Positions 9,734 through 44,513 of a stretch of DNA of 64,000 bases are shown here, piece after piece; within the stretch, counting starts at the first letter, position 1; every line of letters starts with the position of its first letter. The position numbers and the translations under genes are program-made. The DNA comes from a virus. The stretch lies in the IMG/VR virus record IMGVR_UViG_3300021364_000006; one strand, written 5' to 3'. The notes beneath the pieces are model-generated. The model ran no database searches, was not told the origin of the DNA, and saw nothing but the letters and a program-made list of their open reading frames with translations.

Positions 9734-9826
9734 TCATCTGTACAAAAATTTCATTTCGCCGTAGATGAGAGAAAGGAATGCTACTGAACCAAGGGATACG
9801 ATCCCAGCGATTTGTAGTGCTTCCAT
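9734..9826 (-). CDS. 30-aa single-TM peptide (not in ORF track)
   Basis: MEALQIAGIVSLGSVAFLSLIYGEMKFLYR*, immediately after the DUF4278-type gene. Confidence 0.55.
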   Translation of the reverse strand: MEALQIAGIVSLGSVAFLSLIYGEMKFLYR

Positions 9827-9831
9827 GACGA

Positions 9832-9996
9832 TCACTTAGCGTAAGAGTGACCGCGATAGCAGAAAGTTCCATGAACTTCTTCACCACCTTGCTGACACTC
9901 ATACTTGACACCACGATAGGTGGTCATAGCAATCTGAGCATCGTGTAGTGCAGCTGCTTTCTGGATCTGCTTCTTGATGATAGTAAGTGTGTTCAT
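9832..9996 (-). CDS. DUF4278-type (YRG-motif) small protein (not in ORF track)
   Basis: MNTLTIIKKQIQKAAALHDAQIAMTTYRGVKYECQQGGEEVHGTFCYRGHSYAK*; two YRG motifs; AGGAG SD. Confidence 0.8.
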   Translation of the reverse strand: MNTLTIIKKQIQKAAALHDAQIAMTTYRGVKYECQQGGEEVHGTFCYRGHSYAK

Positions 9997-10054
9997 TAGT
10001 TTACTCCTAAAAGAATGGAAAATTAACCTTCTCTCGTTTCCGAGGATCCGTTTT

Positions 10055-10234
10055 CCGTTCCTTCAGTCGTTTGCGTCCCATTGACATTCGGGTACAGATT
10101 CCCTTACGGTTTCTACAAGTTCTACAACCACTGCTGGTGGTAGATTCTTATTTTTGCTGATCCTTAACATTAAGGATTCAGCATCCTGACATGTCAACGT
10201 TGAATACAGAAGTAATTCAAACATGGGATGAACG
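10055..10234 (-). ncRNA. Glutamine-II (Downstream-peptide)-like riboswitch aptamer 2, P2 loop replaced by an ORF
   Basis: CGUUCAUCCCAU...AUGGGACGCAAACGACUGAAGGAACGG; P1 CGUUC/GAACG, P2 UCCCAU/AUGGGA; upstream of a DUF4278-type gene. Confidence 0.7.
10063..10224 (-). CDS. 53-aa two-Cys protein nested in riboswitch aptamer 2 (not in ORF track)
   Basis: MFELLLYSTLTCQDAESLMLRISKNKNLPPAVVVELVETVRESVPECQWDAND*; GGAG 10 nt upstream. Confidence 0.7.
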   Translation of the reverse strand: MFELLLYSTLTCQDAESLMLRISKNKNLPPAVVVELVETVRESVPECQWDAND

Positions 10235-10236
10235 CT

Positions 10237-10468
10237 CCGTTCCGCGACTTACTTGCGTCCTCAGGTAAATGTACCATTGCATTCCCCTTCAACTTTTGAT
10301 TTGAAATACTGGATGAGATTCCATTTCGATCGTTGATCGATGTCGTCCCTCATCTGTGTCTCAACTCTGAGTTGTAGAAACCTTTCACAAGACATATGCC
10401 ACCCATAGGGTGACGGATCGTGATGGGCTAAGGTGAAAGCCAATAGTAGAGATACCATTGGATGAACG
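10237..10468 (-). ncRNA. Glutamine-II (Downstream-peptide)-like riboswitch aptamer 1, P2 loop replaced by an ORF
   Basis: CGUUCAUCC...GGACGCAAGUAAGUCGCGGAACGG; begins about 7 nt after the -10 box. Confidence 0.7.
10261..10458 (-). CDS. 65-aa two-Cys protein nested in riboswitch aptamer 1
   Basis: ATG lies 1 nt after CGTTCATCC; TGA directly abuts GGACGCA; hydrophobic N-terminus. Confidence 0.7.
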   Translation of the reverse strand: MVSLLLAFTLAHHDPSPYGWHMSCERFLQLRVETQMRDDIDQRSKWNLIQYFKSKVEGECNGTFT

Positions 10469-10475
10469 TATGGTC

Positions 10476-10504
10476 ATTATAGACCGCATCACATATTTAG
10501 TCAA
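10476..10504 (-). promoter_or_regulatory. Sigma70-type promoter (embedded CTAAATA late-type motif)
   Basis: TTGACT-N17-TATAAT. Confidence 0.8.
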
Positions 10505-10782: not shown

Positions 10783-11433
10783 TCAATTTTGGTTTTGGAC
10801 CGCTTTCCAATCATTGTCGAAGATCTCTAGACCTTTGTCAGTTAGAATATGATCATACATCTGATCAAATACTTTTGGTGGCATCGTACAGATGTCAGCT
10901 CCATTATACCACGAACGAACAGCACGTTGAACGCTACGAATAGAAGCGGAAAGAACCTGAGTTCTCACACCATGAATACGATAGAGTTCAGAGATAGAAC
11001 GAACAACCTCTAGGCCTGCCACAGATTGGTCGTCAAGGCGTCCTACGAAGGGTGAGACATATGTTGCACCAGCCTTTGCTGCTAGGATCGCCTGAGCGGC
11101 GCTGAAGATCAATGTGACGTTAACTTTGATATTCTGATCGGAGAGTGACTTACAGACTGCTAGTCCTTCACGGGTGCATGGAACCTTTACAGTGCATACA
11201 TCACCAAATTTTTCATAAAGACGCTTGCCTTCACGATACATTTGACCTTCATCACCAACAACTTCCATGCTGATGTCACGAACACCAAGATCTTTGATTT
11301 CCTGATAGACTTCTTCTGGGTCTCGACCACTTTTCATGATCAAAGTTGGATTAGTGGTCACACCATCAACCAAACCAGTTTTGAAGTATTCGTTGATGAT
11401 ATTAGTGTCAGCTGTATCTAGAAAAATCTTCAT
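10783..11433 (-). CDS. talC: Transaldolase (TalC/MipB family)
   Basis: MKIFLDTAD, GVTTNPTL, VKVP, VNVTLIFS, YVSPFVGRLDD, HILTDKG. Confidence 0.95.
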   Translation of the reverse strand: MKIFLDTADTNIINEYFKTGLVDGVTTNPTLIMKSGRDPEEVYQEIKDLGVRDISMEVVGDEGQMYREGKRLYEKFGDVCTVKVPCTREGLAVCKSLSDQNIKVNVTLIFSAAQAILAAKAGATYVSPFVGRLDDQSVAGLEVVRSISELYRIHGVRTQVLSASIRSVQRAVRSWYNGADICTMPPKVFDQMYDHILTDKGLEIFDNDWKAVQNQN

Positions 11434-11470
11434 ATAATTGTGAGTGTATTTCATTTCAGGGATTTTAACA

Positions 11471-11635
11471 TTAGTTACTGAATTCGTCAATGATGTCAAG
11501 CACATCATTTAAAGCTCTGTGAGCACCATCATGCCAGTCACCACTTTTATCATGATGCTGACCATTATACAATGCGGTTTTCAGTTTATAGACTCTTGAA
11601 AGGATATCTACTTTAGACAGTCGCGATCTAGGCAT
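11471..11635 (-). CDS. Small hypothetical protein (not in ORF track)
   Basis: MPRSRLSKVDILSRVYKLKTALY...WHDGAHRALNDVLDIIDEFSN*. Confidence 0.6.
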   Translation of the reverse strand: MPRSRLSKVDILSRVYKLKTALYNGQHHDKSGDWHDGAHRALNDVLDIIDEFSN

Positions 11636-19949: not shown

Positions 19950-20060
19950 AAAGTAAGACCATCAGGGAAATGGTGGAGTTACTATTTCCTCGCACCCTTA
20001 GCGAGGATATGAAAGACGTTTTTATACTCCCTAGAGGTCTTGGTTTACGGGGAGTTGAAC
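19950..20060 (-). ncRNA. Structured psbA 5' leader (PhotoRC-II-like RNA motif)
   Basis: CUCCC...GACCUCUAGGGAG...GUCUUUCAUAUCCUCGC-UAAGGGU-GCGAGGA hairpins directly upstream of phage psbA. Confidence 0.55.
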
Positions 20061-20097
20061 AAAAAATTAAGAACGTTACGTTTCTTAACCTGTTGAC

Positions 20098-44193: not shown

Positions 44194-44265
44194 AGCCCCC
44201 AGTCGGATTTGAACCAACGACCTACGCTTTACAAAAGCGTTGCTCTACCGCTGAGCTATAGAGGC
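44194..44265 (-). tRNA. tRNA-Thr(TGT)
   Basis: GCCTCTATAGCTCAGCGGTAGAGC..ACGCT-TTTGTAA-AGCGT..GGTTCAAATCC. Confidence 0.9.
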
Positions 44266-44272
44266 GATGGCA

Positions 44273-44344
44273 CTCCCAAGGCTGGATTTGAACCAGCGAC
44301 CAGCCGATTAACAGTCGGCGGCTCTGCCACTGAGCTACTTGGGA
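44273..44344 (-). tRNA. tRNA-Asn(GTT)
   Basis: TCCCAAG acceptor, GCCGA-CTGTTAA-TCGGC, GGTTCAAATCC. Confidence 0.9.
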
Positions 44345-44365
44345 ATAAGTGTTCCCCGAAGGGAA

Positions 44366-44437
44366 AGCGGAGTATCGGAATCGAACCGACGACATCTAAC
44401 TTGGAAGGATAGCGTTCTACCGCTGAACTAACTCCGC
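44366..44437 (-). tRNA. tRNA-Gly(TCC)
   Basis: GCGGAGT acceptor, CTATC-CTTCCAA-GTTAG, GGTTCGATTCC. Confidence 0.9.
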
Positions 44438-44441
44438 GAGG

Positions 44442-44513
44442 CAGGCCCACCAGGAATCGAACCTGGGACAACCGCTTAGAAGGCGGGGGTTATATCCGCT
44501 TAACTATGGGCCC
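44442..44513 (-). tRNA. tRNA-Arg(TCT)
   Basis: GGGCCCA acceptor, CCGC-CTTCTAA-GCGG, GGTTCGATTCC. Confidence 0.9.

Follow-up and report, generated by a model that had tools for sequence, protein, structure and literature searches.

Comparative evidence for nested glutamine riboswitch cores that share one helix in the leader of a T4-like cyanophage operon

The locus and its distribution

The stretch of DNA analysed here (the window) comprises 64,000 nucleotides of the IMG/VR virus record IMGVR_UViG_3300021364_000006. It is T4-like cyanomyovirus DNA, and the feature of interest lies on its minus strand, where it serves as leader to a small early phage operon. Read along that strand, the elements follow one another in the order promoter, CGUUC(a), ORF1, AGUCG, GGAACGG(1), CGUUC(b), ORF2, CGACU, GGAACGG(2), hairpin, Shine-Dalgarno sequence and ORF3, where the bracketed letters and numbers tell apart the two copies of each motif (Table 1). 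The TTGACT and TATAAT of the promoter are likewise found directly 5′ of CGUUC(a) in relatives, and transcription is predicted to start at about position 10469, one base ahead of the riboswitch.

Table 1. Features of the leader and of the genes that it encloses and precedes; positions are those of the window
Feature	Position	Strand	Description
Sigma-70-like promoter	10476-10504	-	TTGACT 10504-10499, 17-nt spacer, TATAAT 10481-10476; read from sequence
CGUUC(a), outer P1 5′ strand	10464-10468	-	Last base co-varies with G36 of the 3′ GGAACGG
P2a	10258-10462	-	UCC 10462-10460 : GGA 10260-10258; A-UCC directly after CGUUC(a)
ORF1 (phrog_6471)	10458-10261	-	65 codons; inside P2a
Linker C-GCA(1) and loop-E 5′ half	10250-10257	-	C-GCA 10257-10254, AAGUA 10254-10250; matches RF01739 aCGGAAGUA
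P3 5′ strand	10245-10249	-	AGUCG; covariation with CGACU
Inner P1 hairpin	10230-10243	-	GGAACGG(1) 10243-10237, loop AG, CGUUC(b) 10234-10230
P2b	10076-10228	-	UCCCAU 10228-10223 : AUGGGA 10081-10076; encloses ORF2
ORF2 (phrog_504)	10224-10063	-	53 codons; inside P2b
Linker C-GCA(2) and AA connector	10070-10075	-	C-GCA 10075-10072, AA 10071-10070; inner core, from sequence
P3 3′ strand	10065-10069	-	CGACU; covariation with AGUCG; last U opens the ORF2 stop UGA (10065-10063)
Loop-E 3′ half and GGAACGG(2), outer P1 3′ strand	10055-10064	-	GAA 10064-10062, GGAACGG 10061-10055; consensus, crystal construct, covariation
Variable hairpin and Shine-Dalgarno sequence	10004-10056	-	Hairpin 10056-10017, AGGAG 10008-10004; candidate expression platform
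ORF3 (phrog_545)	9832-9996	-	54 codons; two YRG motifs; weakly DUF4278-like (IF17-like)

The element is widespread in marine cyanomyoviruses, with 415 phage (cyanophage) records matching the riboswitch region. Among the contigs of 185,579 species genomes the exact motif has 10 matches, nine of them in metagenome-assembled genomes and the sole remaining one in Nonlabens xiamenensis strain 1Q3. Most of the matches in metagenome-assembled genomes fall in non-cyanobacterial bins, with labels such as Syntrophaceae, Verrucomicrobiales, Parcubacteria and Euryarchaeota; a 194-kb contig of a Synechococcus bin is also among them. These contigs are most likely cyanophage contigs that were binned into the wrong genomes, and the exact nested motif is essentially phage-borne.

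The surroundings of the operon are less constant. A transaldolase-like gene (talC; 10783-11508, minus strand) lies upstream of it in the window, and in several published cyanophages talC is downstream and nrdB upstream, so that the gene order around the operon differs. In Synechococcus phage Sf-CH5 (PV340852.1, 156891-157978) the homologous region is found as two pieces over about 1.1 kb, and a homing endonuclease is annotated under the match, an arrangement suggestive of a mobile insertion in or next to the operon. Elsewhere in the window are a PhotoRC-II RNA (19974-20069, minus strand), which at 75 bits scores far over its Rfam gathering score, and a cluster of four tRNA genes (44194-44513, minus strand).

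Genes of the operon

In published genomes the genes of the operon are annotated as T4-GC 429, 430 and 660. We found ORF1 in 39 loci, with 65-67 codons. ORF2 is open in frame from AUG to stop in 153 of 157 distinct loci, with 51-64 codons, and the other two frames at its position are closed in 205 of 205 cases. Its AUG begins four bases after CGUUS-A, and its stop codon, UGA or UAA, coincides with the final P3 base and the first two loop-E bases. Judged by these frames, both ORFs are real small genes, their conserved coding sequences fitted between fixed RNA motifs.

ORF3 is presumed to be the regulated gene. Its similarity to DUF4278 is slight (E = 0.0018; 19.1 bits, under the Pfam cut-off of 25.3 bits), and glutamine riboswitches are usually linked to downstream DUF4278 genes (PMC6212724); the DUF4278-like gene downstream is one of several likenesses to glutamine-I riboswitches. 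Ahead of ORF3, the hairpin stem that follows the outer P1 co-varies between loci (GGG...CCC, GGGUU...AACUC, GGAAAA...UUUUCC). We looked for a sequence that would mask the Shine-Dalgarno sequence of ORF3 and found nothing convincing. The hairpin of the window carries an inserted module, which consists of ACGGAUCC, a small hairpin (UCG-GAAA-CGA) and GAGAAGGUUAA. Such a module is present in ten related loci, where its inner hairpin co-varies (AGC-GAAA-GCU, UGC-UACG-GCA), and in relatives that lack it the hairpin is of the plain GGG...CCC type.

Two 5-mers pair with each other across ORF2

A first-pass annotation of the window had pointed out that AGUCG and CGACU, on either side of 53-codon ORF2, are exact reverse complements, and the minus-strand sequence confirms this. 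The first stands in the context GAC-GCA-AGUA-AGUCG-C-GGAACGG, and the second, about 180 nt further 3′, in the context GAC-GCA-AA-CGACU-GAA-GGAACGG. For any two given 5-mers the odds of a chance match are about one in 1000, and the window alone is only suggestive of pairing. We therefore rely on relatives, in line with the check that the annotation had itself proposed, namely covariation of the 5-mers across homologs. In pattern scans of IMG/VR the surrounding motif was fixed and change was forced in the 5′ strand only, while the partner was left free. Across 165 related loci we found eight fully Watson-Crick combinations: AGUCG:CGACU (78), AGUCA:UGACU (37), AAUCG:CGAUU (14), GAUCG:CGAUU (7), AGACU:AGUCU (5), AUUCG:CGAAU (4, the carriers including Prochlorococcus phage P-RSM4), AAUCU:AGAUU (3) and AGUCU:AGACU (3). 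The imperfect cases amount to three single G-U wobbles and two single A-C mismatches. In a MAFFT alignment of 101 distinct relatives (alignment A1), pairing in the helix reaches 99.8%, and at three of the five base pairs both sides change. A minor exception comes from two GOS scaffolds in Weinberg's glnA alignment, which have AGCCG opposite CGACU and thus a C-A mismatch. The 80 loci nearest ORF3 give no covariation signal, the 5-mers being almost invariant there.

Because the partner strand changes to match in relatives, we accept from the compared sequences that the two 5-mers do pair with each other across the ORF. One could suppose instead that their complementarity is incidental, CGACU being kept for the C-terminus and stop of ORF2 and AGUCG for unrelated reasons; CGACU-GA does overlap the last codons and the stop, and the near-invariance of both 5-mers in the closest loci would fit. 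That explanation has next to no chance of being right, since the strands change together through all eight combinations, also in compact forms that lack ORF2. Neither unit has a local partner for the segment that follows its GCA. Together with the mutual pairing, this means that the two sensor cores depend on one shared helix.

The shared helix corresponds to P3 of a glutamine-I junction

We next considered what kind of helix this is. It is flanked 5′ by AAGUA and 3′ by GAA, which are the two halves of a loop E. The Rfam consensus of the glutamine-I riboswitch (RF01739) reads CGUUCA-P2-aCGGAAGUA-(insert)-GAAGGAACGC, and the construct used for its crystal structure reads ...CGG-AAGUA-AGGCCC...GGGCCU-GAAG-CAACG, in which loop E is formed by 23-GAAGUAA-29 and 50-UGAAGC-55 (PMC5393176). 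Because the AAGUA and GAA flanks match both the consensus and the construct, the phage helix can be regarded as the homologue of the type-I junction P3. By this comparison it is the P3 of a glutamine-I-type three-way junction, down to the first pair, which is A:U as in the crystal construct. The first-pass annotation had each aptamer's segment after GCAA pairing with the other aptamer in the manner of a glutamine-II loop-loop or pseudoknot contact. The exchange of partners is borne out by the covariation, but the loop-E flanks speak against a contact of the glutamine-II kind.

The remaining parts of the outer core agree with this assignment. A P1 formed by a 5′ CGUUC and a 3′ GAACG is present, as are a P2 after CGUUC-A followed by a C-G-N linker, the loop-E sequences at the base of P3, and a P3 that closes the junction, though as a long-range helix and not as a hairpin. 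The order of elements, CGUUC, A, P2, ACG-N, AAGUA, P3, GAA and GGAACG, is that of glutamine-I RNAs such as the Synechocystis gifB leader (PMC6212724). The first linker and AAGUA are invariant in the 101 relatives, and in 101 of 101 the C of this linker could form a pair, which never varies, with the final G of the 3′ GGAACGG. The first base of GAA is G or A in relatives (C in one), tracking the use of UGA or UAA as the ORF2 stop.

P2a takes different forms. In the 39 relatives with ORF1 it surrounds the 65-67-codon frame and co-varies (UCUCAUG:CAUGAGA, UCUUAUG:CAUAAGA, UCUCAC:GUGAGA), and the ORF1 start lies within or beside its 5′ strand, facing bases beside the stop codon. In other relatives P2a is a short, co-varying hairpin. 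The helix of the window likewise encloses ORF1, whose start codon adjoins it between UCC and GGUA and whose stop UGA (10263-10261) adjoins GGA; GGUA (10456-10453) possibly pairs with UACC and so extends P2a.

Despite these features, the outer core falls under the Rfam score thresholds. A scan of the whole window at the gathering threshold returned no glutamine family, and neither did a permissive scan of positions 9800-10500 at E values up to 10. With RF01739 the best score among short-P2a relatives is 27.5 bits, against a threshold of 35, and it comes only from the serial alignment; with RF01704, the glutamine-II family, relatives reach at most 28.6 bits against a threshold of 33. On the compared sequences, then, the outer core is built like glutamine-I yet scores below what Rfam demands.

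Covariation of partners favors nested over serial cores

Two models can be drawn for the P1 helices. In the nested model CGUUC(a) pairs with GGAACGG(2) and GGAACGG(1) with CGUUC(b); the serial model joins (a) to (1) and (b) to (2). The other helices are common to both. All four P1 elements are consensus in the window and either pairing could form there, so the choice of the nested model rests on relatives. We scanned for variants at G36 of either GGAACGG, with the partner left free. The elements (a)/(1)/(b)/(2) read CGUUC/GCAACGG/CGUUG/GGAACGG in 70 loci, CGUUU/GCAACGG/CGUUG/GAAACGG in 10 and CGUUU/GGAACGG/CGUUC/GAAACGG in one, and all are consensus in 85. CGUUG as element (a) in seven rows seemed to contradict this but proved to be a detection artefact, the CGUUGA picked up lying inside P2a or ORF1.

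In alignment A1, the pair between C5 of (a) and G36 of (2) is C:G in 92 sequences and U:A in nine, and that between G36 of (1) and C5 of (b) is C:G in 52 and G:C in 49; the G:C and U:A variants are shared by many sequences and may reflect few evolutionary events. Pairing under the nested model amounts to 99.2%, and at these diagnostic pairs every sequence is paired. Under the serial model 52 and 53 of the 101 sequences are unpaired at the diagnostic pairs, each of which is the terminal pair of a 5-bp helix, so that a transient 4-bp serial pairing is compatible with the counts.

Compact natural relatives that lack the ORFs exist, for instance in phages ACG-2014f and Bellamy, and the minimum-energy fold is the nested one in 16 of 19 such relatives. 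For the window, the minimum-energy fold of 485 nt (-149.5 kcal/mol) contains the inner P1 hairpin and omits the long-range helices, which cost about 15 kcal/mol to force. We treated this fold as uninformative given the coding inserts and tertiary motifs, the energy model ignoring loop E, base triples and other tertiary contacts, and the ligand.

These data make it very likely that the leader is a double glutamine riboswitch with nested cores, a type-I outer core and a circularly permuted inner core sharing one P3. The first-pass annotation had instead proposed two glutamine-II-like aptamers side by side, with their post-GCA segments exchanged as a shared P2. Such a domain-swapped serial tandem is compatible with the sequence of the window. 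It agrees with the Rfam models, which align relatives from (a) to (1) at 23-29 bits, and with the 2010 glnA.sto alignment of Weinberg, in which rows of the nested type are likewise aligned as one aptamer from (a) to (1) and the rest is left as 3′ flank (PMC2864571). There is also a structural precedent, glutamine-II RNA being a strand-exchanged dimer in its crystal (PMC6698751). We nevertheless consider it highly improbable. About half of the relatives would have a C-C or G-G mismatch at its diagnostic pairs and none do under the nested model, a linker of 2-3 nt would need to span both ends of the shared helix, and the exact AAGUA and GAA flanks would be a coincidence. Partner covariation thus replaces side-by-side aptamers as the folding units with nested cores: the first GGAACGG pairs with the CGUUC three bases 3′ of it, and the second with the CGUUC at 10468-10464, an element that the annotation had not listed.

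A further reading would accommodate both pairings in time, with a serial or partial (a):(1) helix forming first during transcription and giving way to the nested fold once the 3′ half, or glutamine, arrives. GGAACGG(1) is made about 180 nt before GGAACGG(2), while (a) is free; all four elements are consensus in the window and in many relatives; and alternative structures have been invoked for the glutamine-II mechanism (PMC6698751). Yet in roughly half of the relatives sampled a terminal mismatch weakens (a):(1), and nothing points to selection against it. CGUUC(b), moreover, emerges only 2-3 nt after GGAACGG(1) and forms a favorable hairpin with it locally. We regard such a conformational switch as unlikely, if somewhat less so than the serial tandem, and we retain the nested model in what follows.

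The inner core as a probable circular permutation of the same design

In the nested model the inner core lies in the loop of P3. In relatives, GGAACGG(1) and CGUUC(b) are invariably separated by 2-3 nt, as befits a hairpin loop. P2b, which follows, is 100% paired in alignment A1, with three of four tested pairs changing on both sides, and the A and U of the ORF2 start codon sit in this helix. A pair between the C of the second linker and the final G of GGAACGG(1) is possible in 101 of 101 relatives, here again without variation. In place of loop E, the inner core is connected to P3 by a C and by AA. Its junction runs from the inner P1 through A to P2b, from P2b through the linker to P3, and from P3 back to the inner P1, which equals the connectivity of the type-I junction. 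From the sequences we therefore infer that the inner core repeats this design in circularly permuted form and uses P3 from its other end. The obligate dimeric sensor of the first-pass annotation survives in part: the inner core does need P3, but the cores are nested and not arranged as a side-by-side dimer.

Relation to known glutamine riboswitches

The phage RNA combines traits of both glutamine riboswitch classes. It departs from glutamine-I in that P3, 5 bp in length, is a long-range helix with an entire second core plus a gene in its "loop", in that P2 encloses a gene, and in that the putative long-range pair is C:G, as in type II, and not G:C. With glutamine-II (the Downstream-peptide motif, RF01704; PMC6698751) it shares the core nucleotides, the CGC...GGAACGG form of the putative long-range pair and a marine picocyanobacterial setting. 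Unlike glutamine-II, it lacks an H-type pseudoknot and a local P2 hairpin around GGAACGG: we found no local partner 3′ of either copy, and the nested fold contains no pseudoknot apart from single long-range pairs. The post-GCA segment, moreover, pairs with the other unit and is flanked by loop E, which type II does not have. A further likeness to glutamine-II lies in its crystal form, where two RNAs exchange strands to give hybrid binding sites (PMC6698751).

Tandem glutamine riboswitches have been catalogued before. Sherlock and colleagues in 2022 counted 157 doublets and four triplets, which they treated as pseudo-cooperative independent units (PMC9481103), and the RNAs catalogued as tandems (PMC2864571, PMC9481103) are in part probably the same as those described here. 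Both works treat tandems as independent serial units; the covariation found here points to one interdependent nested fold with a shared P3. The glnA.sto alignment also holds a singlet form, in which an ordinary P3 hairpin stands ahead of an ORF with the YRG motif (PMC2864571). A literature search for a nested or permuted glutamine riboswitch found none; Ames and Breaker (2011) and Ren (2015) lay outside its scope. Another parallel is the tandem glycine riboswitch, which likewise has two homologous aptamers for one ligand, mutual dependence and possible cooperativity. Its aptamers are serial and joined by tertiary contacts, whereas one phage core lies inside a helix of the other and the two share a Watson-Crick helix.

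Possible mechanism and significance

The pocket nucleotides of the glutamine-II structure (C1:G40, G2:C39 with the linker G, and the long-range C:G pair; PMC6698751) are kept in both phage cores. Since the long-range C:G pair can in addition form in 101 of 101 relatives in each core, two binding sites are expected, one glutamine per core, by analogy with the solved type I and type II structures. P3 is needed for the inner junction to form and also draws the strands of the outer P1 together, which should couple glutamine binding at one site to binding at the other. Folding would also bury or abut the start codons of ORF1 and ORF2 and place the ORF2 stop in P3 and loop E, and a ribosome finishing ORF2 would cover P3 and the outer P1. 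Glutamine sensing and translation of ORF1 and ORF2 should for these reasons exclude each other. By analogy with cellular glutamine ON switches, the bound fold may favor translation of the IF17-like ORF3. Altogether, a steep cooperative response from thermodynamic coupling of the sites through P3, combined with the mutual exclusion of ribosome and ligand, could let the RNA toggle between the enclosed genes and the IF17-like gene according to host glutamine, a scheme that we put forward tentatively and think rather less probable than not.

Glutamine riboswitches have been catalogued as single or tandem, and the comparative data presented here describe one interdependent fold: the P3 of a type-I aptamer contains a second, circularly permuted version of that aptamer, and many phages also carry entire genes within the P2 helices. 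Since standard covariance models miss or misalign the nested form, it may be necessary to revise both the numbers and the models of tandem glutamine riboswitches. Provided that its two sites are coupled, the leader would be a case of natural cooperativity built by nesting and not by tertiary contacts, and also of natural circular permutation of a riboswitch core. Should the toggle hold, coding sequences would be serving as structural inserts in a permuted aptamer nested in another. The position of the element ahead of an IF17-like gene would tie early gene expression of the phage to the nitrogen status of its host.
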